64,000 nucleotides of DNA. Origin: an uncultured Thermoplasmata archaeon. Its GTDB lineage: Archaea > Thermoplasmatota > Thermoplasmata > Halarchaeoplasmatales > Halarchaeoplasmataceae. The notes beneath the pieces were generated by a model. That model did not search any database. It was given only the letters and a program-made list of their open reading frames with translations, and had not been told where the DNA came from. This document shows, in pieces, positions 1,787 through 29,531 of the stretch; position 1 is the first letter of the stretch; each line of letters begins with the position of its first letter. Location of the stretch: contig CAZEXI010000003.1 in assembly GCA_964516805.1 (NCBI GenBank), forward strand, positions 3,021-67,020. Reading direction: 5' to 3'. The translations under genes were made by a program, and so were the position numbers.

Positions 1787-2086
1787 TTATTTGTACTCGA
1801 TTTCTTCTATAGTATTCTCTATCAAATCTTTCCACTCATCATGCTGATATTTTGTCTTTAGTAATTGATTCCTTTGCTCTTCTGAAACTGATCTATCCTC
1901 AAGTTGAGATTCGAGTTGCTTGATTTTTATCTTTCTTCTTTCTTTCTCTAACCTTAAGTTATTTAAAGCCTCTTCGAAGGTCATATCTATACCGGGTAAT
2001 TCATCTTCTTTATCCTTATTTTGAAATATTTTTCGCATTATCCTTATCAGTTCGAGCTCATCCGAAGGTATACTATCGACCCTCAT
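1787..2086 (-). CDS. Hypothetical coiled-coil protein
   Basis: 99-aa ORF with charged heptad-like sequence (LRLEKERRKIKIKQLESQLE). Confidence 0.35.
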   Translation of the reverse strand: MRVDSIPSDELELIRIMRKIFQNKDKEDELPGIDMTFEEALNNLRLEKERRKIKIKQLESQLEDRSVSEEQRNQLLKTKYQHDEWKDLIENTIEEIEYK

Positions 2087-2357
2087 CTCTAATAACGTAT
2101 AAAAATGATATATAATTTTCGTTAAATGGAATTGAAATATCGTTTAATTTGCTTAATTTAAATCATTTATTTTTATTATATTTATTAATATGATTAAGGA
2201 GAAGTTCAGTTATGATAAATAAAATAACATACATTCACTTTAACTGAACGTTTTAACCAAAAACAATATATGTTATAATGATTATCATATAAATATACTT
2301 AAAGGGTTATAATCATCAGCTATTAGAAATACCCAGTTAGTACTTAGGAGGGAGCAG

Positions 2358-2786
2358 ATGTATCTTGACACTGATATTACTATGGCTTTGATAGGTCTTG
2401 ACGATATTCTACTTGGTAAATTAGAGTTAGATAACAGGGAAAACTTAAAGACCTCTATCATGACAGTATTTGAAATCAAAGATATCGTTTCAGAGATGGA
2501 TTCTGATCTAGAGCTTCGAGAGATATATAAAAAGATTCAAAATGAGAATATAGAACTTCTTCCATTCACATCAGAAATTCTAAAATTGGCAATAAAATTG
2601 TTAGATGAATATAATGAACTTATATTATTTGACACACAACATGCTATAAATGCAGCACACTGTATACACATTAATGAAACAATATTATCCACTGATACAT
2701 TATACAAAAAAATAGGAGATTTAAAACTCAAAAATCCAATAAAATTACAAAATCAAGAAGATTTTTTTCTCATGTGTGAAGAGTAG
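2358..2786 (+). CDS. PIN-domain (VapC-like) protein
   Basis: GGAGGG SD 5 nt upstream. The acidic PIN series is present in order: YLDTD, VFEI, LFDTQHAINAAH, LSTD. Confidence 0.6.
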   Translation: MYLDTDITMALIGLDDILLGKLELDNRENLKTSIMTVFEIKDIVSEMDSDLELREIYKKIQNENIELLPFTSEILKLAIKLLDEYNELILFDTQHAINAAHCIHINETILSTDTLYKKIGDLKLKNPIKLQNQEDFFLMCEE

Positions 2787-2896
2787 TAGAGTTAAAATTT
2801 TATTCGAAATATATTGATAGATGGCAATAAAGAATATATACCTATGAAGATTAATTTATTCATATAGTAGGACTTGTCTTAAAAGAAGGAATGTTC

Positions 2897-3283
2897 ATGT
2901 ATTTAGCTATAGATGTAATAATGGCCATGATAGAAGATGAAGACTGGTTCATTAAAGAAGTAGACCATTCAAAAATTAAAAATCCAAAAACTTCTGTTAT
3001 GACAGTATTTGAAATTTTAAAAATTAATTCAGAAATAGGTATAAATCATTCAGATTTATTATCAAAATTAAACAAAAATAATATTGAAATCATATCTTTT
3101 ACACCTGAAATGACTGAAACAGTTCAATCTATTTTAAGTAAATACTCAGACCTTTTTGATATTGGATCTTTAAATTCCATACATATCGCTCATTCATTGT
3201 CATTAAACGAACCAATTGTTTCAACAAATCCTGTTTATGATTATCTCAATGAAATAGAACATATCGACCCTAGGAAATTATAA
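2897..3283 (+). CDS. PIN-like paralog of 2358-2786 with altered acidic residues
   Basis: Shares MYL..D, TS(I/V)MTVFEI, LFD and IxSTx with the upstream gene, but has YLAID and STN where the neighbour has YLDTD and STD. The start at the second ATG fits the AAGGA spacing. Confidence 0.5.
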   Translation: MYLAIDVIMAMIEDEDWFIKEVDHSKIKNPKTSVMTVFEILKINSEIGINHSDLLSKLNKNNIEIISFTPEMTETVQSILSKYSDLFDIGSLNSIHIAHSLSLNEPIVSTNPVYDYLNEIEHIDPRKL

Positions 3284-3345
3284 AAAAAGACCCGTTCTTG
3301 TTTAATCAAAAAGTTAAAACAGCTAGTCGTAGATAATCTATTTAC

Positions 3346-3747
3346 ATGAATGAGATAATACTATTAGTACTCTCATCTTTGCTCATGTTTGTATTACATG
3401 AGGTTTTTCATTACCTTTCACTGATTTTACTTCAAGTTGAATTCAAATTATTTTATATTTCAAAAAAAGGAATCGGTTTTATCGTAGATAACCAATACAT
3501 GAGATATGATAATAAATTACTTTTTTTCTTTTTATTCCCTACAGTACTTTCTCTTTCGGTCCTAATCGATCCATATTCAAGATTTTTGATATTTTTTAGC
3601 ATCTTGAATCTACTCTGGAGTCTGTCAGATATCGGTACCGTTTCTAAGATAAGAAAAAAACCTCCCCAGAGAAGGATCGATTGGGCAAACGAATGGGACA
3701 GGGAATCATTAGAAAATTCCTTTTTTACTGTAACAATAAAATTTTAA
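3346..3747 (+). CDS. Small polytopic membrane protein with HExxH motif (DUF3267-like putative zincin)
   Basis: HEVFH sits inside the first hydrophobic helix, and at least three hydrophobic segments are present. Confidence 0.45.
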   Translation: MNEIILLVLSSLLMFVLHEVFHYLSLILLQVEFKLFYISKKGIGFIVDNQYMRYDNKLLFFFLFPTVLSLSVLIDPYSRFLIFFSILNLLWSLSDIGTVSKIRKKPPQRRIDWANEWDRESLENSFFTVTIKF

Positions 3748-4076
3748 TCTGCTATATCATTTATTTTAGATGCCATGATAAAATCGTTTTCAGAGAGTCC
3801 ATCTATAGCGTGAGTTGTTAATTTTAATTCCACCGTATTCCATGATATTTTGATATCAGGATGATGACCTTCACTATCAGCAAGATCAGCAACCTTATTT
3901 ACAAATTTCATCGATTCATTAAAATTTTTAAATTTGAACGTTCTCTCGATTTTATGCAATCCTTCTCTATCAAGTTTCCATTCTTCTAAATCTCTCATGT
4001 ATCTATCTTCTTCAACCTTTGTTAAAGGAGGTTCACCACCTTCACAAGGTACACAGTGCTTATTTTTTAATTCCAT
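3744..4076 (-). CDS. Pterin-4a-carbinolamine dehydratase (PCD/DCoH)
   Basis: CVPCEGG N-terminus and EGHHPDIKISWNTVELKLTTH core motif. Start moved to the internal Met (MELKNKHC). Confidence 0.8.
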   Translation of the reverse strand: MELKNKHCVPCEGGEPPLTKVEEDRYMRDLEEWKLDREGLHKIERTFKFKNFNESMKFVNKVADLADSEGHHPDIKISWNTVELKLTTHAIDGLSENDFIMASKINDIAD

Positions 4077-4569: not shown

Positions 4570-5805
4570 TTAACTATCGAAGATATAAAATGTTATAAGT
4601 CCAAAGATAGCAATAAGCGATAACGAGAGCAAGCCTATGTTATATGATGCTGTTAATGCAACAACACCTCCCACCAAAACTGGACCCAATACTCCTACAC
4701 CGTTTCCTATACCGTTCATCAAACCTGTTGCTGAACCGATGGTGTTATTGGGCACCTTTTGTTGCAGCATAGTAAAAAATAAAGGAGGAGCCATCTGACC
4801 AAAAAGAAACACGAAAAATAAAATTAAGATGGCATAATTTACATTAGGCATAGGAAATATAGTTAACATACCTATCATCAGAGCACTCATGAAAAGCGAT
4901 GACATTATTATCTTTTTAGTGTGGCCTTTAGTATCGCTAACCCATGACCCTATAACCATACCAACAACCGCTCCTACATACGGTATCGCTGCTCTGTAAG
5001 ACATCTCGCTGATATTCAAACCATGTACTTCTATGAGATAAGTAGGGATCCATAAGCTGACACCCCACCAAACTGTTGTAACTGCAGTGAACCCAATCAA
5101 TACAACTTGAAAATCCCTATCTTTTGCTAAATTGATCAATGATTTTTTAATATCAAGATCTCTTTTTTCATCTTTATTAAATTTAATACTTCGATTTGGA
5201 CTGTCTCTGATAAATAATAAGACAGGTATACTTAAAATAAATCCTGTCAAAGCAACTATATAAAACGAAAATTGCCAGGTTTGAAAAATGATCAAAGGGG
5301 ACATTAAAATTGGTGCGATTGCTACGCCTACAGGACCTCCACTCATAAAAACTGAATTTGCTCTACCTCTTTTAGATTCTTTAAACCAACCCGCTGTTAC
5401 TTTATTTGCTACTGGGAACAATACACCCTGGGCCAAGCCTAAAAGTAATCTAGAAAATAATAATATCCAGTAGTTTCCACCAAAATATGCTCCTATAAAG
5501 ATAGCTGAAGACCAACCCGATATCGAAATTGCTAACATTATTTTCGTTCCGTATTTGTCAATATTAGGGCTGAAAAATATGTTAGAAAATCCATAGCTAA
5601 CCAGAAATATACCTAACAAAACTCCTCCCAAACTACCCTGCTGAGAAGAAGACCAACCCATGTCAGATGCTATATTATCTAATGCTACAGAAGTACTCAT
5701 CCTTCCTATATAACCCATAACTATAGATAAGAACAATAAAAATAAAATGAACGATTTATATTTTCGGGAAAGGTCGAATCCAAAATTTCTTATGTCAAAT
5801 TTCAT
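4570..5805 (-). CDS. MFS transporter (anion:cation symporter-like)
   Basis: 411 aa with about 12 hydrophobic segments and the loop motif GRMSTSVALDNIASDMGWS...DKYGTK. Confidence 0.75.
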   Translation of the reverse strand: MKFDIRNFGFDLSRKYKSFILFLLFLSIVMGYIGRMSTSVALDNIASDMGWSSSQQGSLGGVLLGIFLVSYGFSNIFFSPNIDKYGTKIMLAISISGWSSAIFIGAYFGGNYWILLFSRLLLGLAQGVLFPVANKVTAGWFKESKRGRANSVFMSGGPVGVAIAPILMSPLIIFQTWQFSFYIVALTGFILSIPVLLFIRDSPNRSIKFNKDEKRDLDIKKSLINLAKDRDFQVVLIGFTAVTTVWWGVSLWIPTYLIEVHGLNISEMSYRAAIPYVGAVVGMVIGSWVSDTKGHTKKIIMSSLFMSALMIGMLTIFPMPNVNYAILILFFVFLFGQMAPPLFFTMLQQKVPNNTIGSATGLMNGIGNGVGVLGPVLVGGVVALTASYNIGLLSLSLIAIFGLITFYIFDS

Positions 5806-5880
5806 TATGTTCTAGATGGACTATAGAAGCAACTTGATTAAATTTTTGGAATGATATCAACCAATATAAAGACAATGATT

Positions 5881-5918
5881 CTGGGAAGCCCAGACATTAA
5901 TTAGTCCAGACTTCCCAG
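5881..5918. repeat. Inverted repeat CTGGGAAG-N22-CTTCCCAG with internal direct repeat CCAGAC x2
   Basis: Read directly. It lies in the divergent MFS/ROK intergenic region, inside a locally GC-richer patch. Confidence 0.5.
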
Positions 5919-6195
5919 GTAACCATCCTCCCTCCCCTTTGATGATACTAGAATAGTGGTTTATTATTGAACTACTCATATTAATTAGTAGTCTGCCATT
6001 TTTCATTATACTTGTTCGCTTGTCCGTAAATACAAGAAATGTGAAACTAAGATATATAATTTACGATTTAAAATACTTTAATTAACATAAGGATTAATTA
6101 AAAACATTAAATTTTTTTAAAAACTATTGATACGAATAACTCTTTTTCCACTATTATATCACAAAATATTATACTGCCTTAAACAATTGATAACT

Positions 6196-7056
6196 ATGGG
6201 CAGTCTTTGTATAGATATGGGCGCCACAAAAGTATATCTTGGGATAGCTGATGTAGAGTTCATAGACATTATAAAAAAAGATACTAAAGAATTTTTAGAG
6301 AATTCAAATAACATATTGAAGAACATCAAAAAGGATTATAATATAGAAAATACCGCTATTGCGTTGCCAGGACCATTGGACTTAAAAAATGATCTTATTT
6401 TTCCCCCTAATATCCAAAGCCAGAAGATCGATATTAAAGACTTATTTAAAGATAATTTCTTCAATCCTAAACTGATAAATGACTGTCATGCCGGAGTGAT
6501 AGGAGAATATCTTTACGGGGAAAACAAATCTGATGATATCGTTTACTTAACCATCAGCACAGGTATTGGTGCTGGTGTGATATCGTCAGGGGATCTGATC
6601 AAAGGTTGGGATGGTAATTTTGCGGAAGTGGGGCATATGTTGATAGGTGGAGATAGACTATGTGGTTGCGGGGGAAAGGGTCATTGGGAGGCTTACTGCT
6701 CAGGAAATAACCTCATCGAATTTGCAGAGAAAATAACCAAAGAATCCTTCAAAAATCCAGAACAACTATTCAAGGAATTCAAAAAAGGAAATAAAAAAGC
6801 TGTTAAAGTTATAAAAAAATTTCAAAAGATCAATGCCAAAGGAATATCAAATATTATCAATTTATACAATCCTGAAATTATCATTATTGGGGGAAGTATC
6901 GCAGTTAACAATCCAGAAGCGATTATCGGTGATAATATGAACGTTATAAATGAAAATATAGTAAATCCAATGCCAAAGATCAAATTTACATCCCTAGGTA
7001 ATTACTCCGTCCTACATGGATTAAGAGCGATTTGTAGAGGTCAATTTGACTATTAG
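6196..7056 (+). CDS. ROK-family sugar kinase (glucokinase-like, no HTH domain)
   Basis: LCIDMGATK N-terminal ATP-binding motif and CGCGGKGHWEAYCSG ROK zinc motif. Start moved to the internal ATG. Confidence 0.75.
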   Translation: MGSLCIDMGATKVYLGIADVEFIDIIKKDTKEFLENSNNILKNIKKDYNIENTAIALPGPLDLKNDLIFPPNIQSQKIDIKDLFKDNFFNPKLINDCHAGVIGEYLYGENKSDDIVYLTISTGIGAGVISSGDLIKGWDGNFAEVGHMLIGGDRLCGCGGKGHWEAYCSGNNLIEFAEKITKESFKNPEQLFKEFKKGNKKAVKVIKKFQKINAKGISNIINLYNPEIIIIGGSIAVNNPEAIIGDNMNVINENIVNPMPKIKFTSLGNYSVLHGLRAICRGQFDY

Positions 7057-18721: not shown

Positions 18722-21226
18722 TTATCTTTGTCCTTGAATTAAAGGGTCAATAACAAAAATCTTTGCAACGACCAAAATTATGATAATAACCAATAATGGA
18801 ATCATAAACCAATTTGATTCATAAAAATTACCTTTTGGCCCACCTACTTCTCCCTGAAAACTTGGTTCTCCATCAACTTCCTTTGATAGTTCACCTTCAC
18901 CTATTTCATTAAATGCTGAGACTCGATAATAATAAGTGTTATAATTTGTTAAATTTTTATCGATATATATTTCATTATCAGTCAGTGTTGCAATAAGTTT
19001 TCCCCTGCCATTGCTTGTTGATCTATATACATTATAACCTAAGATCATCTTTCCTCCTGTATCTTCAGGAGGGTCCCACTCTATGGTGATCTGATTATCG
19101 CCCTCTACCATCGATATATCGGTTGGTGCACTAGGTTTTAAAAATTTAGGACCTATAATCACGCTTTTCTCTTCTGATCTACTACCTTCTCCAGCACTAT
19201 TTTTACCACTTATCTGATAATAATAAGTAACATTACGTTCTATATTTTTATCTTCATATGTGTAAGTAATTCCAGAAACATTATCTATAATCACTTTTTC
19301 ATCTGATCTTTTACCTCTGTAAATAAAGTATTTTGTTACATCTATATTCTCAGAAGGAGGATCCCATCTCAAAATGTTACTATCCTTGTTATCAAACTCT
19401 GCTGTGAAATCCTGAGGTATTCCAGGTGGGGATGTTTCTTCTTTAGGTGCTCCTGAAAGAGTGTCTGTTTTATTGCTCTGTCCGACAGAGTTGAGAGCTG
19501 TTACATAGTAGAAATAAGTTACGTTATTCTCTACTTCATCATCAAAATAAGACGTTTTTAATTCCCTCAAATTCTTATATAAACTAATATTTCCTGTACT
19601 TGTTCCTTTGTATATTTTATAGCCAGTTAATGGTGACCCACCAGTATCTTCAGGGGTATCCCAATTTAATATCATAAATTTATCACCTTCTTCGATCTCA
19701 AAATTTCTAGGGCTAGAAGGTGGCCTAACTTCTGAGGAGCTTTTTATAGGCGTCATTAGAGGATAATTGTCTATGTTATTTTCCCGAAAAACAAAGTATA
19801 AGGAATCCCCGATTCCATCGCTTCCTTCTTCATCTTGATCAATACCACTTTTTTTATCCGAACCGTTATAATCAGACCAATAATTACCTCCTACAGGATA
19901 TCCATTATCCCAAAAATTCTTTTTTGTAGCCTTAGCCTGATTATCATTATTTATGAAATTATTATTATAAATAAGGTTCTTTCTTGATTCACTAATATCT
20001 ATACCAATGCTATTTCTGCTTATATTGTTGTATCTAAAGGTATTAGAGTTTGATTTAAAAATTGTTATGCCCACCCATTCATTTGAAAATATTGTGTTAT
20101 TATTTAATTTGTTATTTATTGATGAGGATATGTATATACCATAACGGCCATTTGCTGAGATTGTGTTGTTGTTTATATAGTTTCTATCCGAAGATAATGT
20201 GAAGGATGCTCCTGTGAATTCAGAAGATATTATCGTGTTATTTGTAAAAATATTATTTCCTGCTGAAGAGGTATACAGCCCGTACTCACCTCCCGATATT
20301 TCGTTACTATCCACTTCACTTCTATTATTTTCTAGAAGAAAAATACCATAATCTGAACTTTGAATTCTATTATCTTTTATTAACATACCATCACAATGAG
20401 AACTTATGATGCCTGCCTTACTTCTTATAATTTCGTTATTTATAATTTCATTATTACGTGTATGAAATGTATTAATAGAATATTTTGTATTTAAATTGAT
20501 AACATTATTTCTTATTATGTTTTTTCTACTATTTCCCTCAACATATATCCCGTCGTCCTGATTAGTTGAAACTGTATTATCTTCAACAAGAACACCATTA
20601 GATTCGGTTATATGGATACCATCATCGTAATTGCTTAAAGCCTCATTATCTCTAACAATCATATTTGTTGTTATTTGAAGGTCGATTCCATCTCCATCAT
20701 TACTAAAAGCTGTATTATTTACTATCACACCATTGGAAGCATTATATACTGCTATCCCCTCTCCAGCTAGAAATGGATTGCTGAGCCAAATAGCATTGTA
20801 TACTGTACAATTCCTAATCATAAAATGTAAATCTGTATTACTGATCATGATGGCATTTCCTGCCCCATTAGCGTTGATATCATAATTTTCTATTATGAAA
20901 GGATTTTTTTCAGTACCATTACCTGCCCACCCTTCACTTTCTGCTTTGGTAAAGAAGTCATCATTACCAATTACAGTTATAGGAGTGTGTTTAACCAATT
21001 CAGAAGATTCCTTCAATGATCTTTCTAAAGATTTTGCTTCATTATCGTCATTATATATTGTTTGATCGATCTCTTCTGCTCCTGATGCATCATCATTCAT
21101 TATTCTAGGTGCGGCATTATTATCTGATGAATCAGATATGCCAAATACCTGAACTGACATTAGGCTTAATATATAAAATAAGATAAAAATTGATATCATT
21201 GATTTCTTAATTAGCTTATAATTCAT
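18722..21226 (-). CDS. Large cell-surface protein: signal peptide, right-handed beta-helix (PbH1/NosD-like) repeats, three FN3-like modules, C-terminal TM anchor
   Basis: N-terminal hydrophobic leader. About 15 repeats of N..I..N. Three modules of P..L....GD....L.W..P.DTGG..I.GY.IYR. The C-terminus is NWFMIPLLVIIIILVV. Confidence 0.75.
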   Translation of the reverse strand: MNYKLIKKSMISIFILFYILSLMSVQVFGISDSSDNNAAPRIMNDDASGAEEIDQTIYNDDNEAKSLERSLKESSELVKHTPITVIGNDDFFTKAESEGWAGNGTEKNPFIIENYDINANGAGNAIMISNTDLHFMIRNCTVYNAIWLSNPFLAGEGIAVYNASNGVIVNNTAFSNDGDGIDLQITTNMIVRDNEALSNYDDGIHITESNGVLVEDNTVSTNQDDGIYVEGNSRKNIIRNNVINLNTKYSINTFHTRNNEIINNEIIRSKAGIISSHCDGMLIKDNRIQSSDYGIFLLENNRSEVDSNEISGGEYGLYTSSAGNNIFTNNTIISSEFTGASFTLSSDRNYINNNTISANGRYGIYISSSINNKLNNNTIFSNEWVGITIFKSNSNTFRYNNISRNSIGIDISESRKNLIYNNNFINNDNQAKATKKNFWDNGYPVGGNYWSDYNGSDKKSGIDQDEEGSDGIGDSLYFVFRENNIDNYPLMTPIKSSSEVRPPSSPRNFEIEEGDKFMILNWDTPEDTGGSPLTGYKIYKGTSTGNISLYKNLRELKTSYFDDEVENNVTYFYYVTALNSVGQSNKTDTLSGAPKEETSPPGIPQDFTAEFDNKDSNILRWDPPSENIDVTKYFIYRGKRSDEKVIIDNVSGITYTYEDKNIERNVTYYYQISGKNSAGEGSRSEEKSVIIGPKFLKPSAPTDISMVEGDNQITIEWDPPEDTGGKMILGYNVYRSTSNGRGKLIATLTDNEIYIDKNLTNYNTYYYRVSAFNEIGEGELSKEVDGEPSFQGEVGGPKGNFYESNWFMIPLLVIIIILVVAKIFVIDPLIQGQR

Positions 21227-21370
21227 CTAACAAAACACCTCTAAATTTTTTTTATATCACATATCTCTCTTAAATTAAAAGAAACATGTTTTAGATATAT
21301 AAACTTACACCTATATACCACGATTTTCACCAAAATATTAATAATAGTGGGCATTCAATTCTGTTTTAAC

Positions 21371-22705
21371 ATGGCATTAGAAAAACTAAAGGACGGTTTA
21401 AGAACAGCAGTCAAAAAAGTTACAAACGCTAGTCACATCGATAAAAATCTTGTAAACGATGTGGTTAAAGATATTCAAAGGGCCATGATAGAAGCTGATA
21501 TGAATGTAGAACTCGCCCTTGATTTGACAGAAAAATTAAAAGAAAGAGCTTTGACAGAAAAACCACCTGCAGGTATGAGTTCACGCGAACACGTTATCAG
21601 AATTATTCATGAAGAATTTGTTAATATTCTTGGTAAGGGTGTAGAATTAGAATTAAAACCTCAAACAATAATGATGGTTGGTTTATATGGGATGGGTAAG
21701 ACTACAACATGTGGTAAATTAGCAGCTTACTTTCAAAAAAGAGGATTGAATACAGCTTTGATAGCTGGAGATACACATAGACCTGCAGCTTACGACCAGT
21801 TAGAGCAGGTAGCTGACGAGGCAGGCGTTCCTGTTTATGGATCGCCAGATGCAGAAAAGGCCCCTAAAGTTGTTAGAGAAGGCCTTAAAAAATTCGAAGA
21901 CTATGATATCGTCATTATAGACACAGCTGGTAGACATTCTTTGGAAGATGATCTTATCACCGAAATCAAACGTATTGAAAAAATAGCTGATCCAGATGAG
22001 GTGATCCTGACAATTGATGCATCTATAGGACAGCAAGCTGGCCCTCAGGCAAGAGCCTTCCATGATGCTGTTGGTGTTACAAAGACAATAATAACAAAGA
22101 TGGACGGAAGTGCTAAAGGAGGAGGTGCTCTTAGTGCTGTATCAGAAACTGGTGCTCCAGTAGCATTTATTGGTAATGGAGAACGTATCAAAGATTTAGA
22201 AAAATTTGATCCTAAAGGTTTTACTTCAAGATTACTTGGAATGGGTGACATAAAAAGTCTTTTAGAAAAGGCAGAACAGGTAATAGATGAAGACCAAGCT
22301 GAAGAAACTGCTAAAAAGATGCTGTCTGGTGATTTCAATCTAAAAGACATGTATGAACAGATGGAAATGCTTTCAGGTGTTGGTCCACTTCAAAAAATCA
22401 TGGATATGCTTCCAGTAGGTCCAAAAAATGTCTCCAAAGATGAGATCTTATCTACTCAAGATAAACTCGATAATTTCAAGATAATAATGGACAGTATGAC
22501 TGAGAATGAAATGGAAAATCCAAGCTTGATAAAAGGAGATAGGATAAAGAGGATCGCTAGAGGCAGTGGTAAACATCCCAAAGAAGTTAGAGAATTACTT
22601 TCACATTATAAAAAGACAAAAAGAGGGATAAAAGGATTCACTGGTAATCGAAAGATGCGAAAGCAACTGATGAAACAGTTAGAATCCGGTAATGTTAATT
22701 TCTAA
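21371..22705 (+). CDS. srp54: Signal recognition particle protein SRP54
   Basis: GLYGMGKTTTCGKLA, DTAGRH, TKMDGSAKGG, and a Met-rich M domain. Confidence 0.92.
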   Translation: MALEKLKDGLRTAVKKVTNASHIDKNLVNDVVKDIQRAMIEADMNVELALDLTEKLKERALTEKPPAGMSSREHVIRIIHEEFVNILGKGVELELKPQTIMMVGLYGMGKTTTCGKLAAYFQKRGLNTALIAGDTHRPAAYDQLEQVADEAGVPVYGSPDAEKAPKVVREGLKKFEDYDIVIIDTAGRHSLEDDLITEIKRIEKIADPDEVILTIDASIGQQAGPQARAFHDAVGVTKTIITKMDGSAKGGGALSAVSETGAPVAFIGNGERIKDLEKFDPKGFTSRLLGMGDIKSLLEKAEQVIDEDQAEETAKKMLSGDFNLKDMYEQMEMLSGVGPLQKIMDMLPVGPKNVSKDEILSTQDKLDNFKIIMDSMTENEMENPSLIKGDRIKRIARGSGKHPKEVRELLSHYKKTKRGIKGFTGNRKMRKQLMKQLESGNVNF

Positions 22706-23214: not shown

Positions 23215-24444
23215 ATGGTAATGATGAAGGTATTGGAAGGTAAAAAAGATCATTTTGTTGCTTCAGAAGAAATCCAAGAAGATCTAGCAATGAGCACCAG
23301 TGATATATTGATTGTTAAAAATCCTATAAATCAACGGTGTATAGCTAATCATGTTGAGTTCATTGATGATATAGAAAAAGATGTGATCAAAATAAATAAG
23401 ATCTCGCTGGAGGCTATTGGTCTAGATTCTGATTTTGACGTCGAAGTTTATCCGTTTAACGAAGATTTGACAAGCATCGAAAAAGTAAAATTTGGAGTTG
23501 AAAACTTCAAAAAATCTGAAAACGATCCGTTAACAATTGTAAAAGAAAACGAAGATATATTTATAGATTTTATTAAAAATAAAATATTCACAAAAAGTTC
23601 AAAATTCCACTGGGAAAAGAAGGGTATATTGATCTCCATAAAGAACACCTGCCCAGGTATGAACGTCTCTGATGTGGGTAAATTCAAAGAATCTTTTCGA
23701 TTTACATATGAATGGGGTGGAAGTGAATTAAAATCATTCGATGGAGTACTCCTCTTAGATATGTCTGGGAGTATGGAGATAATGGATCTGAATATGGAAG
23801 ATGTAGGCTGGGTAGTAGAAAGAATGAGTAGAAATTTAGATGGAAAATATTGTCAAAAATTTCTGAATTCGTTAAAAGGTAACAAAAAAGTTAGGCGTTC
23901 ACATGGTGCAGTCTTATGCGCATTGGTATATCTTGTACAAAAAATCGGGAGAGGTATCGGAGATAGGATATCTATGATACCATTTAGTGATGAATCTTCC
24001 GTGATCGAGTTTGATGGAAAGGATTACTTTTCATCATCAGTCGGCAATACATCTTACGGTGCAGAAAGAATAGTGGAAGAAATTTATAATACAAAAAGGA
24101 GCCATACTAACCTTTCAGATAGTTTTAAAAAAGCTATAGATGTTATGAAAAATTTCGATAGAAATAAGATGAAAATGATTGTCGTACTGACTGACGGAAA
24201 ACCAAACCCTAAAAGTATAGATTGTAAAGAAAATCTTCTGAACATGATCAAAAAAAGACTCGCTCCTAGAAAAGATATCGTGGTTAACGCCATAGGTTTA
24301 GGAAATGAAGTAGATCATAAATTACTTGATAAGATATCTGTAATGACTGGTGGTGAATATACTCATGTTAATAGTTTAGAAGGATTAACTCAAGCATATA
24401 CTCGCTATGCCACATCGATCTCAGTCAAAGGTTCAACATTTTAA
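23215..24444 (+). CDS. VAT-N/CDC48-N-like N-terminal domain fused to a von Willebrand factor A domain
   Basis: MIDAS motif LLLDMSGSM, later VVLTDGKPN. The N-terminal ~90 aa resembles the double-psi barrel pattern (ILIVKNP...VIKINKISLEAIGLDSDFDVEVYPF). Confidence 0.6.
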   Translation: MVMMKVLEGKKDHFVASEEIQEDLAMSTSDILIVKNPINQRCIANHVEFIDDIEKDVIKINKISLEAIGLDSDFDVEVYPFNEDLTSIEKVKFGVENFKKSENDPLTIVKENEDIFIDFIKNKIFTKSSKFHWEKKGILISIKNTCPGMNVSDVGKFKESFRFTYEWGGSELKSFDGVLLLDMSGSMEIMDLNMEDVGWVVERMSRNLDGKYCQKFLNSLKGNKKVRRSHGAVLCALVYLVQKIGRGIGDRISMIPFSDESSVIEFDGKDYFSSSVGNTSYGAERIVEEIYNTKRSHTNLSDSFKKAIDVMKNFDRNKMKMIVVLTDGKPNPKSIDCKENLLNMIKKRLAPRKDIVVNAIGLGNEVDHKLLDKISVMTGGEYTHVNSLEGLTQAYTRYATSISVKGSTF

Positions 24445-24445
24445 T

Positions 24446-26605
24446 TTAAATATTATTTGAAAATTCCTTTTTCAGTTCAGAAAATTTATCTTGATCTATA
24501 TCTAGTAATTCAAGAGAAGGATGATACTCAACATCTGAGATACTTTTCTTCGATATATCCAATAATTTTTCCATGGTTTCTTCGAAACTGATATCATTTA
24601 CATGTGAAAGGTATATCAATAACTGTGAATCTGATAAAGGTGGTTTGAGGTCATCATTTGTTATATCTAACAGCCTTAAAAACATCAATTTAACATACCT
24701 AGAATCTATTATATCCATCTCTATCAAAGAAGGCCACAAGGATTGAATAAATTTTCTATTTAATTCATATAAATGATTCAACTCTGATGATTCTTCCATA
24801 TCCAAGATATACTCTATATTTTTGTCCGAGTAAAACCTACCATAAAATCCATTTTTAATACTTTCATTTCGATTTCTCTTTATTTTTCTATTAGAAGTAT
24901 TTTTTAATTTCGTATCATTAAACCTACCTTCAATATAACGGACTAAGCTCTGGAGAATAACAACGTCAGTTATCCTACTTAATGAGGTCAATTGAGTATC
25001 AAAAACCCTGATCTCGATCGTGTTAAATCTTGTAAATGGATAGATGTCAACCATTCTAGACGAATCATTGATTCTTTTCAATTTATTATCAAAATAAGTT
25101 TTATTTTTGTCAAAAGGAAGGAAAGGAGGAACGCTGAATTGTTCTTTATTAATATCCAACCTATTAGAATAAGCAGACCCTAATATTACTAAATTACCTT
25201 TATCATTGAATGTAAATTCTGGGATTTTATCATCACAAAAAGGTGAATTAGAAGAGATTGCAATAAAATAAGGTATAAACAATCTTAGAGAATTATAAAC
25301 AAATGTCCTTAATTTTTCATCTGGGATATAGATATGATGATGTTCTCCAAAAGTTACCCCCTTTGTGTAATCCTCAATCGGATTTGAACCTAATGGTAAT
25401 ATTTTAATTTTTTTATTTATTTCTTCTATGACCTCATTAGCTATCCTATATAGATTAAAAGCCCACCATTCGATTTCCTCTAGATACTTGCAGGGTGGTG
25501 TCTGGATTTCAAGAATATTAGTTTTCAATGATACATGTGAATCCTTTCCAAATATTGAATAATATTGTACTTCGCCTTCAAGATAATACTGAACATGTAA
25601 TGCATAACATCCTTTGTCATCCATTTTTTTATTTATTCCCCCTCTCCATTTGTTTTTAATATATTCTGGTGCTTTTTTTCTGATTTTCTCTAATTTATCA
25701 ATTGCAATTTCTAATAGTTCATCATAAACTTCTTCAACTTTACCTCCTTCTACCAATGACCAATCTTCATTAATAAGTTGAAGTTCTATTTCTAGGCCGT
25801 GAGAATAGAACATCTCTTTTAACTCATTTTTACTAACTCCATTATTTCTCATGTCAATGTTTATATCTGACTGAAATTCTTGAATTTCATAATTTGAATT
25901 GATTTCTATTTTATGGGTTAGTTTTGTCTCTTTTTCTTGGAATATAAAATTAAATCTACTATCGACACTACTCCTGTTAACTAAATTCAAATGTGATTTT
26001 GGTATTTTTTTGTTAGATTCTAACCAATCTTTTACATATTCAATGTAGCGATTTTTTGTTTCTGTTATCAAATATATTTTAGATTCATCATCTAATTGTT
26101 CTGACAGATATATATTCTTATACTCATCGATCAAAAAATTAAATTCTCTTTTGCCTAAATTTACTGGTGTATTAACAAAATCTTTTTTTTCAAATGTACT
26201 ATTAATTTTCTCTTTTGAAACTATCCTGTAAGATACATCTGTTTCCACTTTCTTATCCTCAGATAAAGACAAAGTTATCATTAATGAATCGTCTTTGAAT
26301 TGGATATTACCCAAGAACAGACTTTCCTCATCAGAGTAATTAGAGACTATTTTAGGTAAAGACTTATCCTCAATTTTGAAATCAGTTATTTTATTGTTTG
26401 GAGATCCATTATCTTTGCTTTCAGAATTGGATATTATAGTTCTAAGTATAATATATAATACAAAAAAACCCAAAACAACAATCGATACACACAATATTCT
26501 ATCATAAGAAAGGTATGTAATTATGTAAGATTGATATGAACAGTTGTCCCAGGGTAAACTAATCATTTTGATGATTCTCCAAGTGGTAGGAGCTTTAAAA
26601 TACAA
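24446..26605 (-). CDS. Membrane-anchored protein with a C-terminal YbdK/GCS2-type carboxylate-amine ligase domain
   Basis: One N-terminal TM helix and about 210 aa of unknown sequence. Then GLEIELQLI, LEIQTPPC, FGEHHHIYIP, FIPYFIAISSNSPF and NTIEIRVFDTQLT, in the same order as the YbdK motifs. Confidence 0.7.
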   Translation of the reverse strand: MYFKAPTTWRIIKMISLPWDNCSYQSYIITYLSYDRILCVSIVVLGFFVLYIILRTIISNSESKDNGSPNNKITDFKIEDKSLPKIVSNYSDEESLFLGNIQFKDDSLMITLSLSEDKKVETDVSYRIVSKEKINSTFEKKDFVNTPVNLGKREFNFLIDEYKNIYLSEQLDDESKIYLITETKNRYIEYVKDWLESNKKIPKSHLNLVNRSSVDSRFNFIFQEKETKLTHKIEINSNYEIQEFQSDINIDMRNNGVSKNELKEMFYSHGLEIELQLINEDWSLVEGGKVEEVYDELLEIAIDKLEKIRKKAPEYIKNKWRGGINKKMDDKGCYALHVQYYLEGEVQYYSIFGKDSHVSLKTNILEIQTPPCKYLEEIEWWAFNLYRIANEVIEEINKKIKILPLGSNPIEDYTKGVTFGEHHHIYIPDEKLRTFVYNSLRLFIPYFIAISSNSPFCDDKIPEFTFNDKGNLVILGSAYSNRLDINKEQFSVPPFLPFDKNKTYFDNKLKRINDSSRMVDIYPFTRFNTIEIRVFDTQLTSLSRITDVVILQSLVRYIEGRFNDTKLKNTSNRKIKRNRNESIKNGFYGRFYSDKNIEYILDMEESSELNHLYELNRKFIQSLWPSLIEMDIIDSRYVKLMFLRLLDITNDDLKPPLSDSQLLIYLSHVNDISFEETMEKLLDISKKSISDVEYHPSLELLDIDQDKFSELKKEFSNNI

Positions 26606-26691
26606 TGAAATTTAATTTTATCGGTTCTCTGTATGGTTTTCCAAAGAAGTATTAATTAATTGTAAATTTTATTATATTAAATAAAATTTTA

Positions 26692-27307
26692 TTAACTTAC
26701 TTTTTTAGAAGCAACTCTATTCATCGCATGTTTGTGCGGTATTCCACCCGAATCGCAATTAAATATTTCTTCAACGCTCCATTCTATCTTCCAATTACTG
26801 TAATAAGTTAACAGTTCACCAGATATCCACTCACAGGCTGTTTCTTCACTATCTGGAGCAGGTTCGATAAAAGGTTTATCTACAAAAACTGAGTGTACGT
26901 GTATTCCTCCAGGCTTAGTATGTTCTTTATAATTCTTTAAAATTTCATCTCTCAAATTACAAGAGATGTAATGAAGTGTAGCACTTGAAAATATGATATC
27001 ATAGTCTTCTTCACATCTAAATTCATTTATATCTGCTGTAAAAGCATCAAGCTCTACTCCTACTTCAGAAGCAAATTTTTTCGTTTTTTTTGACGCCCTT
27101 TTCAGATAGGTCAAAAGCAGTCACATCATAGCCGTTTCTAGCAAAAAATACAGCATTCTTTCCCTCCCCGCAGCCTAAAACAAGTAGTTTTAACTTCTGA
27201 ACAGGGGGCTTTAATTTTAGTACTTTGAAACAAGAAGATGATGGTTTTTTACCCCAGTAATAATCATCACTTGAGTATTTCTGATCGTATATAGTATCAT
27301 TTTTCAT
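26692..27307 (-). pseudogene. TehB-like SAM-dependent methyltransferase interrupted by a +1 frameshift in an A8 run
   Basis: Two overlapping ORFs (27065-27307 and 26692-27114) together give LVLGCGEGKNAVFFARNGYDVTAFDLSEKGVKK|TKKFASEVG...KPGG. The frames join at T8 (plus strand), 27084-27091. Confidence 0.75.
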
Positions 27308-27461
27308 ACTAATTAAAATGATTTACATACCATATAAAACTTATTAGCTAAAAAGATAATAATACGATTGTCTTCTATAAAGTATAAAAATACACTGATT
27401 AAAAATCAATAGAAAAAGTTAAAATTACATGAACATAATCCGGATAATCCGGAGAATCAAG

Positions 27462-29531
27462 ATGGTGGAATACGAGAAAGATGAAATCAAAGAGAAGTTC
27501 AAAAATTTCTTTGAAGATGAAGGATATCATTCAGAATTGATAAGGATAGCAGATAATTTTCCCGATGAAAGATCACTCAACATCACATATCGGGACCTCA
27601 CGATGTATTTTGAGGATCTCGATTTTCCACAATATATTATCGATCATCCTAAGAAATGTCTAGTTTTAGCTGAAGAGACGATAAGAGAAATAGTTGGTGT
27701 TCCTGATGATACTGAGATCAGGCTCAGGATAAAACAGCTCTCAGAGCCTCGTCACAAAATGATAAGACATCTCAGAGCTAGTGATCTGACAAAATATCTT
27801 GCTATCGATGGTTTAGTGAGAAAAGCTACTGAAGTAAGGCCTAGGATATCAAAAGCTGTTTTTGAGTGTATGAGATGTGGTGCAAAAACAACGATTGAAC
27901 AGGCGGGTAACAATATCGAGGAACCAGTTGAATGTGCGGGCTGTGGAAAATCTGCCAACAAAACTAATTTTAATCTACTTTTAGACGATTCAGAATTTAT
28001 CAATTATCAAACTATAGAAATACAGGAAAGTCCAGAAGGTCTTAGAGGGGGTGACCAACCGCAGAGATTGAGAGGGTGGGTGAAAGAGGATCTAGTAGAT
28101 AAAGTATCACCTGGAGATAGGATAACTGTTGATGGCATATTGGACGGAGATCCAAAAAAAGAAACTAGTAGAGGCAAATCTAGAGTTTTTGATATCTTTA
28201 TTCGAGTAAATGGTATAGAAGTTAAAGAGTATGAATTCGAAAATCTAGAACTATCAGATGAAGATATCGAAGAAATAGAAGAAGTTTCGGAGGATAAAAG
28301 GATATTCGATAAAATAATAGATTCAATAGCCCCTAGTATATATGGATTAAGAACCGAAAAAATGGGACTCAGCTTACAGTTATTTGGTGGAGTTAGAAAG
28401 ACAATGCCAGATGGGAGCACTACAAGAGGTGATATCCATATATTGATGGTGGGAGACCCAGGAACAGCTAAATCGCAACTGTTGAGATATATTTCAGATC
28501 TATCTCCAAGAGGGATGTACGCTTCAGGAAAAGGTTCAACAGGAGCTGGTTTGACAGCTGCAGCAGTAAGAGAAGAAGTCATGGGTGAAAGTCAGTGGGT
28601 TTTAGAGGCAGGCACGCTTGTTCTTTCAGACATGGGTATTGCATGTATAGACGAGTTAGATAAGATGAGATCTGAAGACAGAAGTGCGATGCACGAAGCT
28701 ATGGAACAGCAGAGTATCTCTGTTGCTAAAGCAGGTATCAATGCGACTCTAAACTCTCGATGCGCTGTTCTGGGTGCTGCTAATCCTCAATATGGTAGAT
28801 TTGAAGTACATGAAAATATTTCTCAGCAAATAGACCTTCCACCACCACTGATTTCAAGATTCGATCTTATATTTGCACTCCTGGACAAACCAGATCGAGA
28901 AAAGGACTCAAGGATTGCAAATCATATCTTGAGACTTCATACAGAAGGTGAGAGACTGGAAAGAGGTGAAGATAAAACAGAACAGCAATTCACCCCAGCA
29001 TTTGATAAGGAGTTCCTAAGAAAATATGTTGCTTACGCTAAAAAGATAAAACCAGAGATGACCAAACAAAGCAGAAAAAGGCTAGAAGATTTCTATTTAG
29101 ATCTAAGAGGCAGTGGCGGTGATGAAGACTCTATTCCCGTAACAGCAAGACAGCTGGAATCTCTTGTGAGATTAGCAGAAGCAAGTGCAAGAGCGCATTT
29201 AAAAGAAAGAGTAACTGTAGAAGATGCAGAAAGAGCTATTAAAGTAACTCAGCATTTCTTGAATCAAGTAGCATCCACTGAGTCTGGCGGACTTGATATA
29301 GATATGGTAACTTCAAGTGTTTCACATGACGAGAGGACCTTACTTGGTCATATTCGTGATATCATTAGAGATAAAAGTGATATACACGAAGGTGGAGTTC
29401 CAGAGGATGAAATATTGAACGAAGCTGATTCTAGAGGTCTTTCAAGGGAAGAAGTAAGGAAAGAGATTAATAGGATGAGAACAAAAGGACAATTATATAC
29501 TCCTACCCAGGGACATTATAAATTAGCATAA
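27462..29531 (+). CDS. mcm: Replicative helicase MCM
   Basis: Zn motif CMRCG...CAGCG, Walker A MVGDPGTAKSQLL, Walker B CIDELDKM, arginine finger SRFDLIF. No intein. Confidence 0.95.
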   Translation: MVEYEKDEIKEKFKNFFEDEGYHSELIRIADNFPDERSLNITYRDLTMYFEDLDFPQYIIDHPKKCLVLAEETIREIVGVPDDTEIRLRIKQLSEPRHKMIRHLRASDLTKYLAIDGLVRKATEVRPRISKAVFECMRCGAKTTIEQAGNNIEEPVECAGCGKSANKTNFNLLLDDSEFINYQTIEIQESPEGLRGGDQPQRLRGWVKEDLVDKVSPGDRITVDGILDGDPKKETSRGKSRVFDIFIRVNGIEVKEYEFENLELSDEDIEEIEEVSEDKRIFDKIIDSIAPSIYGLRTEKMGLSLQLFGGVRKTMPDGSTTRGDIHILMVGDPGTAKSQLLRYISDLSPRGMYASGKGSTGAGLTAAAVREEVMGESQWVLEAGTLVLSDMGIACIDELDKMRSEDRSAMHEAMEQQSISVAKAGINATLNSRCAVLGAANPQYGRFEVHENISQQIDLPPPLISRFDLIFALLDKPDREKDSRIANHILRLHTEGERLERGEDKTEQQFTPAFDKEFLRKYVAYAKKIKPEMTKQSRKRLEDFYLDLRGSGGDEDSIPVTARQLESLVRLAEASARAHLKERVTVEDAERAIKVTQHFLNQVASTESGGLDIDMVTSSVSHDERTLLGHIRDIIRDKSDIHEGGVPEDEILNEADSRGLSREEVRKEINRMRTKGQLYTPTQGHYKLA

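Follow-up and report, generated by a model that had tools for sequence, protein, structure and literature searches.

To our knowledge, carboxylate-amine ligases with a glutamine synthetase (GS) fold are known as small-molecule enzymes (GS itself, gamma-glutamylcysteine ligase (GCL) and YbdK) or, in PafA alone, as a protein-tagging enzyme. Here we describe a putative ligase of this fold that is encoded in a 64,000-nucleotide stretch of DNA (hereafter, the window) from an uncultured Thermoplasmata archaeon (GCA_964516805.1, contig CAZEXI010000003.1, positions 3,021 to 67,020). The predicted enzyme is tethered to the membrane and belongs to an archaeal clade apart from YbdK, and its gene adjoins that of a vWA protein in every lineage compared.

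The closest described system is E. coli YbdK (GCS2; PDB codes: 1r8g, 1tt4), which has in common with the window ligase the fold, the order of the motifs (GhExE, HxH, ExRxxD and an SxSP helix) and, presumably, an ATP-dependent chemistry in which an acyl-phosphate is formed and then converted to an amide. In contrast, the sequences are only 16–17% identical, and the window ligase scores 46 bits against a subfamily cut-off of 176 bits. YbdK is a soluble protein of ~370 residues, whereas the window ligase has 706 residues, with a transmembrane (TM) anchor and a 200 residue N-terminal module (hereafter, N-module). The clade motifs GKDSHVxLKTNILEIQTPPC and FGEHHH, the obligate vWA neighbour and the restriction to archaea likewise set the window ligase apart from YbdK. 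The gamma-glutamylcysteine ligases (plant GCL, 2gwc; E. coli GshA, 1va6) resemble it in superfamily and active-site layout, with Foldseek matches at ~1e-6, but there is no family match at the sequence level and both the architecture and the gene context differ.

A GCS2-type catalytic domain

Carboxylate-amine ligase superfamily members have a GhExE motif in strand 1, [HD]x[NH] in strand 4 and Ex[RK]xxD in strand 6, together with conserved acidic residues in strands 2 and 3 and two 'arginine finger' residues around strand 5 (Iyer et al., PMC2588565). The corresponding motifs of the window ligase are invariant in an alignment of 18 homologous sequences (31–87% identity): H269-G270-L-E272-I-E274 in strand 1, FGE-H422-H423-H424 in strand 4 and E531-I-R533-V-F-D536 in strand 6, which align to GIELEM, FGQHVH and EVRVMD of YbdK, respectively. 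Residues of these motifs and of the N-module are numbered here from the first codon of a 719 residue open reading frame (ORF; TTG start), and residues 23–45 of the TM helix and K318 from the ATG of the 706 residue product. Also invariant are E366 (within NILEIQTPP, in a predicted strand at 364–368), R517 and R526, which lie at the expected positions and are candidate equivalents of the acidic and arginine finger residues. Since the superfamily motifs are invariant in the 18 homologues, the protein appears to be equipped for ATP-dependent acyl-phosphate and amide chemistry. On the evidence of sequence, its C-terminal ~450 residues make up a catalytically intact, ATP-dependent carboxylate-amine ligase of the GS fold and GCS2 type, with a predicted activity of that kind. 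The catalytic domain, as delimited by motifs, sequence searches and Foldseek, spans 24836–25819 (reverse strand); it is followed by a C-terminal helical region (24449–24835, reverse strand) that is kept within the family and includes P625, P656 and Q661.

An earlier model-made annotation of this DNA (hereafter, the original prediction), drawn from the letters alone, had proposed a carboxylate-amine ligase of the GCS2 superfamily, and in this it is borne out by the intact and invariant catalytic motifs. The strings that it quoted (ILCVSIVVLGFFVLYIILRTII, GLEIELQLI, LEIQTPPC, FGEHHHIYIP, FIPYFIAISSNSPF and NTIEIRVFDTQLT) were all located in the ORF, and the alignment to GIELEMQVV, FGQHVHVG, FVPHFIALSAASPY and GTVEVRVMDTPLT of YbdK was reproduced. 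Homology to GCS2 beyond chance level is also found by database comparison, with a Pfam GCS2 match above the gathering score and recovery of YbdK by both PDB and Foldseek searches. The Pfam model (PF04107) matched at 22.7 bits versus a gathering score of 21 over residues 415–458 (44 residues on 45 of 291 model positions), and membership of that family is marginal by this measure. The NCBIfam models of the YbdK family matched with E-values of 4e-12 to 5e-11. In a sequence search of the PDB, YbdK (1r8g) was found at E 3e-4 with the single sequence and at E 4e-10 with the family profile, which aligned three blocks of YbdK (GIELEM, FGQHVH...SAASPY and DIRP...EVRVMD).

An AlphaFold2 (AF2) model of the ligase was built from the 18-sequence alignment, with a mean predicted local distance difference test (pLDDT) score of 79.3. 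When the model was used to search for structural homologues with Foldseek, the highest ranking match was to YbdK (1r8g; E 3e-12, target-normalised TM-score 0.72). A second tier comprised plant GCL (~1e-6) and E. coli GshA (7e-6), followed by Dop and PafA (1e-5 to 2e-4) and by glutamine synthetases (2e-4 and weaker).

A distinct archaeal clade

Scores of the window ligase against the NCBIfam YbdK-family models were 42–46 bits, versus cut-offs of 176–425 bits (best 46.1 versus 176.4), so that all of the equivalogs (TIGR02050, NF010040 and related models) were missed. A profile search of 1.84 billion representative sequences returned 92 proteins at E<=1e-30, and proteins of YbdK size (335–400 residues) entered the same search only from ~E 1e-28 down to 1e-9. 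As the scores lie far under the cut-offs, the architectures differ and YbdK-sized proteins appear only as weaker matches, the window ligase falls in a separate archaeal clade (~92 representatives from Thermoplasmatota and Asgard archaea) and not in YbdK proper.

Several architectures occur within the clade. The family of the window ligase, in which a TM helix and the N-module precede the catalytic domain (~700–740 residues), accounts for seven representatives. In giant proteins of 2,200–3,800 residues, the TM anchor is replaced by ~2,000 residues of coiled coil and the N-module is retained. Other members have an N-terminal catalytic domain with long tails (850–1,400 residues, including a cluster annotated as Thorarchaeota) or comprise ~500 residues, one of these being annotated as Heimdallarchaeaceae. 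In a further protein of 962 residues (P0051) the ligase is fused to the CDC48N-vWA module described below. One giant, encoded by L024 (1021–9381, forward strand), is 2,786 residues long and consists of ~2,000 residues of E/K-rich coiled coil with a helix-hairpin-helix-like GIGLKLSEKILE segment, the N-module, the ligase domain and an immunoglobulin (Ig)-like tail; other giants of 2,200–3,800 residues include P0043–P0048 and P0063.

All genome-collection matches to the TM family were to metagenome-assembled genomes (MAGs) of Thermoplasmata or Thermoplasmatota, save for one bin labelled Aenigmatarchaeota, and by their record titles many derive from soda-lake or salt-lake samples. Family members are named in databases either "hypothetical" or "glutamate-cysteine ligase family protein", and a full-text literature search found no description of the ligase family, the gene cluster or the CDC48N-vWA pairing. 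The word-indexed searches used here are non-exhaustive, and the loci, many of which are MAGs from related habitats, are only partly independent of each other.

Membrane anchor and topology

The original prediction had noted a single N-terminal hydrophobic helix, and hydropathy agrees: the mean Kyte-Doolittle value reaches 2.69 over 19 residues, and no further segment exceeds 1.2. The predicted TM helix (...RILCVSIVVLGFFVLYIILRTII; 26432–26500, reverse strand) comprises approximately residues 23–45, and the AF2 model has a helix at 34–62. A segment with a Kyte-Doolittle value >2.3 is present in 14 of the 18 homologues as their genes are called. In P0016, one of two seemingly anchorless calls of 648 residues, an upstream in-frame TTG/GTG start restores the TM helix, followed by KKDRSNSKSKK. 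The architecture had been considered unusual in comparison to soluble ~370 residue YbdK, and this view is upheld by the conserved TM helix and a family-specific N-module.

Among the homologues, the 15 residues on the C-terminal side of the helix contain on average ~4 lysines and arginines, versus ~1 on the N-terminal flank. By the positive-inside rule, this enrichment indicates a single-pass N-out/C-in protein with a short N-terminus outside and the bulk of the enzyme in the cytoplasm, an arrangement that agrees with the requirement for ATP. The chemistry is accordingly indicated to take place at the cytoplasmic face, and the enzyme might act on a substrate of the membrane or envelope.

The N-module and two ubiquitin-like-domain proteins

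Between the helix and the catalytic domain lies the family-specific N-module, which is predicted to be cytoplasmic (approximately residues 80–262; 25820–26368, reverse strand; pLDDT ~75–85). In the AF2 model it is composed of a beta-rich sub-domain N1 (~80–180) and an alpha/beta sub-domain N2 with four strands (~182–250). Foldseek returned for the N-module a weak match to the PepSY-type C-terminal domain of YpeB (E 0.015), and the same module is carried by the giant paralogues. Some 210 residues of this region had been taken to be free of recognizable motifs, which does not hold, as the second half is homologous to a domain found in neighbouring proteins of the relatives.

These proteins, S166 (~166 residues) and S150 (~150 residues), are encoded by two small genes divergent upstream of the ligase in distant relatives. 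Each is built from an N-terminal ubiquitin-like (Ubl) domain and a C-terminal 'WLxxNIG' alpha/beta domain. One S150 matched Pfam ubiquitin at 33 bits versus a gathering score of 25.4, several sequences matched Rad60-SLD at E 2e-4 to 8e-4, and the two proteins are paralogous (hhalign 98.8%, E 5e-17). It is the 'WLxxNIG' domain to which N2 (approximately residues 182–255, with invariant W194; 25841–26062, reverse strand) is homologous: hhalign aligned N2 to the C-terminal domain of S166 with 97% probability (E 9e-11) and to S150 with 88%. N1 resembles neither the Ubl part of S166 nor N2 by hhalign, and the N-module can thus be ruled out as a complete S166-like unit.

In the window, L001 and L025, a hidden Markov model (HMM) of S166 matched, among all six-frame ORFs, those of the ligase only. 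A word-indexed search with the S166 alignment found 11 proteins, all on contigs resembling the cluster of the distant relatives (type A, below) and none on contigs of the window's clade. Small proteins encoded upstream of a Thorarchaeota-type paralogue (L029) were without similarity to S166, S150 or the N-module. Given their N-terminal Ubl domain and variable C-termini, S166 and S150 are unlikely to be conjugated tags resembling Pup or ubiquitin. S166, S150 and the amidohydrolase that accompanies them matched no family in NCBIfam, and none of the ligase, vWA, S166, S150 and amidohydrolase proteins was matched by PADLOC. A reading of the locus as a defence system was discarded, PADLOC having matched only the TehB orthologue of L001 as a generic methyltransferase (mad2).

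The vWA protein is the conserved genomic partner of the ligase

The neighbourhoods of the ligase gene were compared in 17 distinct lineages, which fall into two locus types with different outer neighbours. In type A (14 lineages, ligase 33–41% identical to that of the window), the genes for S166, S150 and a hydrolase of the Amidohydro_2 family follow each other in this order, divergently from the ligase gene, and the vWA gene converges on the ligase gene from the other side; the exception is L006, which is without S150. In one type-A locus (L012, ~4926–6848, reverse strand), S150 and Amidohydro_2 occupy one uninterrupted frame, which is either a fusion or the result of a lost stop codon. In type B (the window, L001/L002 and L025/L026; ligase identity 50–87%), a TehB-like gene precedes the ligase in the same orientation, the vWA gene again converges on it, and the outer neighbours RidA, SRP54, MCM, DUF424, NMD3 and Nop are all syntenic within the clade.

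The original prediction had placed the vWA gene tail to tail with the ligase, and indeed the ORF at 23215–24444 (forward strand) ends 1 nucleotide from the ligase stop codon. Of the two adjacencies whose recurrence was at stake, that of ligase and vWA is found in 17/17 lineages, whereas that of TehB and ligase is confined to the window's clade (L001, L025 and the window itself). Among the neighbours, only the vWA gene is common to all 17 lineages; it lies 1–20 nucleotides from the 3' end of the ligase gene or overlaps it by 12–14 nucleotides, and its product is the conserved genomic partner of the ligase. The vWA protein is better conserved than the ligase, with most type-A orthologues ~47–55% identical to the window protein and that of L001 97% identical.

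Ligase and vWA protein are linked by three more, independent observations. In the P0051 fusion (962 residues), residues 60–386 align with residues 62–382 of the window vWA protein (E 2e-28) and the ligase domain occupies 431–904. In L024 (3–410, reverse strand), a paralogue of the vWA family is encoded divergently and directly upstream of the giant ligase paralogue; it aligns over the first 136 residues, corresponding to the CDC48-N-like part, at which point the contig ends. In L033 (4770–7583), the cluster's Amidohydro_2 has an orthologue (36% identity) in divergent arrangement with a distant vWA orthologue (35% identity), and the available 17.6 kb contain no gene for a ligase, S166 or S150. 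Taken together, the fusion, the paralogous pair and the pairing of vWA and hydrolase without a ligase make the vWA protein look like a hub for the ligase, the hydrolase or both.

Two of these loci have other features of note. P0051 corresponds to L028 8001–10889, at the end of a 100-kb contig, and beside it (L028 600–7880) are genes of DNA-modification and defence type, namely three N6/N4 methyltransferases, Mom, SLATT, TGT/QueC/QueF and a ThsB-like TIR protein. Downstream of the L033 pair are a 1,056 residue PKD-repeat protein and a protein of >2,400 residues with FG-GAP repeats.

Structure of the vWA partner

The partner (409 residues) matched Pfam VWA at 33.2 bits versus 23.8, and its metal ion-dependent adhesion site (MIDAS) is intact (D182-x-S184-x-S186, T298 and D327), with D182, S184, T298 and D327 invariant and S186 at least 90% conserved. 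It has neither a TM segment nor a signal sequence. The AF2 model (pLDDT 91.7, predicted TM-score 0.88) was matched by Foldseek to the N-terminal half of eukaryotic DEPDC5 from GATOR1, comprising the N-terminal domain (NTD) and SABA in the same domain order (E 2e-11, query-normalised TM-score 0.47–0.50), to the N-domains of p97/VCP and NSF (~1e-9) and to many vWA domains (TRAP, ITIH1, archaeal ArnB and TFIIH p44). On the basis of these matches the protein is modelled as a CDC48/NSF-N-like double-barrel domain (approximately residues 1–170) followed by a vWA domain.

The resemblance to DEPDC5/Iml1 extends over both domains in order, and that to p97 and NSF concerns the N-domain separately. In contrast to these proteins, the partner has no AAA ATPase, DEP or GAP domains and an intact MIDAS; identity is 10–13%, and the likeness is one of predicted structure. 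A literature search returned no paper on an archaeal counterpart of the NTD and SABA two-domain unit of DEPDC5.

MIDAS sites recognise protein ligands by their acidic side chains, and CDC48 N-domains are docking sites for ubiquitin-fold (UBX) adaptors. Both of these binding modes would fit a complex with the Ubl-domain proteins held by the vWA protein, which would also present a ligand bearing a carboxylate.

A proposed system for reversible amide modification

We propose that the ligase is a membrane-tethered, cytoplasm-facing enzyme that works with the CDC48N-vWA partner and, in type-A lineages, with Ubl adaptors and a hydrolase to bring about a reversible amide modification; we give this proposal about an even chance of being correct. 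As in the rest of the superfamily, the ligase would use ATP and Mg2+ to phosphorylate a carboxylate, usually the gamma-carboxylate of glutamate, and the acyl-phosphate would then be coupled to an amine to form an amide. The substrate of the reaction, at the cytoplasmic membrane face, would be a protein or peptide or a molecule near the membrane, which might be recruited by the vWA/CDC48-N partner or might be that partner itself. In the relatives, the Ubl-domain proteins would serve as adaptors that dock through the domain they have in common with N2, and the amidohydrolase would remove the amide mark. Evidence for the involvement of the hydrolase lies in its conservation in the type-A cluster, its being in frame with S150 in L012 and its pairing with the vWA orthologue in L033. 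In the window genome, the system would be reduced to the ligase and the vWA protein.

The gene context invites comparison with pupylation. The window ligase resembles PafA and Dop as a carboxylate-amine ligase of the GS fold (Foldseek ~1e-5), and in a genomic context that comprises protein-interaction modules, small proteins of ubiquitin-like fold and a hydrolase that could potentially reverse the mark. Membrane insertion has a precedent in the Pup ligases of Plesiocystis and Rhodopirellula (PMC2588565). The differences are substantial: strand 6 of PafA has [QH]x4D and the window ligase the GCS2-type ExRxxD, no match to Pfam Pup_ligase is found for the window ligase, and a disordered, Pup-like tag ending in GGQ/E is missing among the neighbours. 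In the type-A loci, moreover, the candidate eraser is an unrelated Amidohydro_2 protein and not a Dop paralogue, and proteasome genes are not linked. Membership in the Pup ligase/depupylase family was rejected on account of the strand 6 motif, the missing Pup_ligase match and the absence of a Pup-like ORF. A bolder form of the proposal, which we consider unlikely, is that the ligase, the CDC48N-vWA protein, the two Ubl proteins and the amidohydrolase form an undescribed archaeal protein-modification system, pupylation-like and independently assembled, in which the ligase would be the writer of isopeptide or amide bonds, the metal-dependent hydrolase the eraser and the CDC48-N/vWA protein the reader or adaptor. 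The proteins on which the writer acts would then be located at the membrane or, for the giant paralogues, on a coiled-coil scaffold.

The substrate could instead be a small molecule. A membrane-localised enzyme resembling YbdK or GshA would make a gamma-glutamyl thiol, a compatible solute or a polyamine conjugate, with the vWA protein as regulator or scaffold and the amidohydrolase recycling the product in the relatives. YbdK and the gamma-glutamylcysteine ligases are the nearest solved structures, the motifs of the Glu/ATP/Mg type are all present, many of the relatives are from MAGs of soda lakes or hypersaline habitats, where unusual solutes are common, and there is no obvious tag protein with a conserved C-terminus. 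On the other hand, the score lies far under every YbdK and GshA equivalog cut-off. For a metabolic ligase it would be odd to have a TM anchor, to sit on a giant coiled-coil scaffold or to be fused to CDC48N-vWA, a protein-interaction module, and equally odd to be paired so strictly with a MIDAS protein and Ubl-domain proteins; the gene is also fast-evolving and dispensable (see below). On balance this explanation is on the doubtful side, while deserving serious consideration.

Several observations weigh against reversible amide modification by the ligase and its partners. The topology derives from hydropathy and the positive-inside rule and not from a dedicated predictor. Amidohydro_2 proteins are often decarboxylases or hydratases and not amidases. 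The ligase and vWA genes are convergent and hence do not share a transcript. S166 and S150 do not have the look of tags, since neither has a conserved C-terminal residue such as that of Pup or ubiquitin. Genes for S166, S150 and the amidohydrolase were not found in the 64-kb window or in the available flanks of L001 and L025 by tblastn or by profile HMMs on six-frame ORFs, the one match in the window being N2 of the ligase. In terms of the ratio of non-synonymous to synonymous substitution rates (dN/dS), the ligase evolves ~10–25 times faster than its housekeeping neighbours. Lastly, the ligase is dispensable in this population, since a near-identical strain (L030) carries a nonsense codon and a motif deletion.

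Selection and decay in the lineage of the window

dN/dS was calculated between the window and L001, in the case of TehB after repair of its frameshift. The window ligase is under purifying selection (dN/dS 0.18–0.32), with values of 0.24 for the whole gene, 0.32 for the N-terminal region and 0.18 for the catalytic part; the neighbours vWA, TehB, SRP54 and MCM gave 0.14, 0.13, 0.03 and 0.009, respectively. The window allele has its full length and all of the invariant residues.

Over 7.5 kb, the nucleotide sequence of L030 is 99.93% identical to that of the window. In its ligase gene (1920–4037), AAA is changed to TAA at K318 (window position 25615), and a 3-nucleotide deletion (window 25527–25529) drops the leucine of SHVSLKTNILE, the most conserved motif. 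The ligase is thus a pseudogene in this sibling strain.

These data raise the prospect of a decaying relic: in the lineage of the window, the partners (Ubl proteins and hydrolase) would have been lost, with the ligase on its way to a functionless pseudogene, a course of events compatible with either reversible modification or a small-molecule product. Consistent with this are the stop codon at K318 and the leucine deletion in the sibling strain, the frameshift in adjacent TehB (see below), the ligase dN/dS of 0.24 in comparison to 0.01–0.03 for MCM and SRP54, and the failure to find S166, S150 or amidohydrolase genes in the 64 kb. Against it, the window copy is full-length with its invariant residues intact, its dN/dS of 0.18–0.32 is clearly purifying, the pair of ligase and vWA is retained across the clade down to 50% identity, and the vWA partner is 97% identical to that of L001. 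We regard decay as quite improbable.

Synonymous divergence (dS) from L001 is uneven across the region, at 0.65 for TehB, 0.24 for the ligase, 0.16 for SRP54, 0.135 for MCM and 0.10 for vWA (26692–27307 versus 21347–22705 and 27429–29531). Such unevenness across adjacent genes would fit recombination, or the replacement of an allele, in the segment of TehB and the ligase, which on these sequence comparisons is a local hot-spot of divergence under weaker constraint.

Start codon and promoter-like box of the ligase gene

The original prediction had read the ligase as a 719 residue product. The corresponding ORF is present (24446–26605, reverse strand; TTG-initiated), and a shorter product of 706 residues from ATG 26566 is favoured. 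The position of TTG 26605 is a TAG stop in L001, whose ligase is 87% identical to that of the window, and ATG 26566 is the sole in-frame start common to the two; public gene calls record the identical 706 residue product from this ATG as P0214. As the TTG is a stop codon in L001 and the public calls begin at the ATG, the true start is almost certainly ATG 26566, giving a coding sequence of 24446–26566 (reverse strand). A 17-nucleotide box resembling a B recognition element and TATA element (AACCGATAAAATTAAAT; 26610–26626, reverse strand) lies 44–60 nucleotides 5' of this ATG. The box is unchanged in the window, L001 and L025, while the remaining spacer of L025 is unalignable, and it is probably the ligase's own archaeal promoter, a role suggested by its sequence.

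The TehB-like gene and other neighbours

Upstream of the ligase lies a gene for a TehB-like S-adenosylmethionine (SAM) methyltransferase (26692–27307, reverse strand). As originally described, it ends 86 nucleotides upstream of the TTG on the same strand; it is, however, split into two ORFs (27065–27307 and 26692–27114; 80 and 140 residues), which cover positions 21–71 and 79–170 of the TehB profile. The cause is a +1 frameshift from a single extra A in a run of eight (27084–27091), which has seven in both L001 and L025, where TehB is intact (213 and 204 residues, respectively). The identical frameshift is seen in L030 (an NCBI MAG contig) and L031 (an independent Logan assembly) from the same population, and for this reason is probably real and not an assembly slip. 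Some full-length TehB could still be made by transcriptional slippage within the A-run. In L025 (4595–5209, reverse strand), TehB has GSEEG in place of the SAM-binding GCGEG of the window and L001 and may be catalytically impaired.

The idea that TehB and the ligase form a two-enzyme module acting on a membrane or envelope substrate came from the original prediction. It can draw on the same-strand adjacency in the window, L001 and L025/L026 at 50–87% ligase identity and on purifying selection on the repaired TehB relative to L001 (dN/dS 0.13). Yet TehB is frameshifted in the window and two further assemblies, the SAM motif of L025 is GSEEG instead of GCGEG, and the two genes are 86–125 nucleotides apart with a conserved promoter-like box between them. 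The entire neighbourhood is syntenic within the clade, so that adjacency says little, and TehB is absent from the other lineages: in 14/14 of type A, no TehB adjoins the ligase. With TehB frameshifted, the adjacency limited to one clade and the ligase having a promoter-like box of its own, the module is largely refuted and is very improbable; TehB is a bystander outside the conserved system.

Elsewhere in the window, 18722–21226 (reverse strand) encodes a probable cell-surface protein of 834 residues, conserved in L001/L002, which combines a region of NosD/right-handed beta-helix type with three fibronectin type III domains and has a hydrophobic anchor at its C-terminus. Neither Rfam nor tRNA scans yielded a match in the window.

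Significance

The comparisons define an archaeal clade of ligases that, as far as sequence and models indicate, always has a localisation or scaffold module, be it a TM anchor, a giant coiled coil or Ig-like tails. The clade is genomically tied to a CDC48-N/vWA module, often along with ubiquitin-fold proteins and a hydrolase. Even with a small molecule as substrate, this remains an unannotated family, to which the transfer of existing names would assign a wrong function. If the substrate is a protein, the clade would represent a second, independent instance of protein ligation by the GS fold, and the first in archaea, with related ligases reaching both Thermoplasmatota and Asgard lineages.

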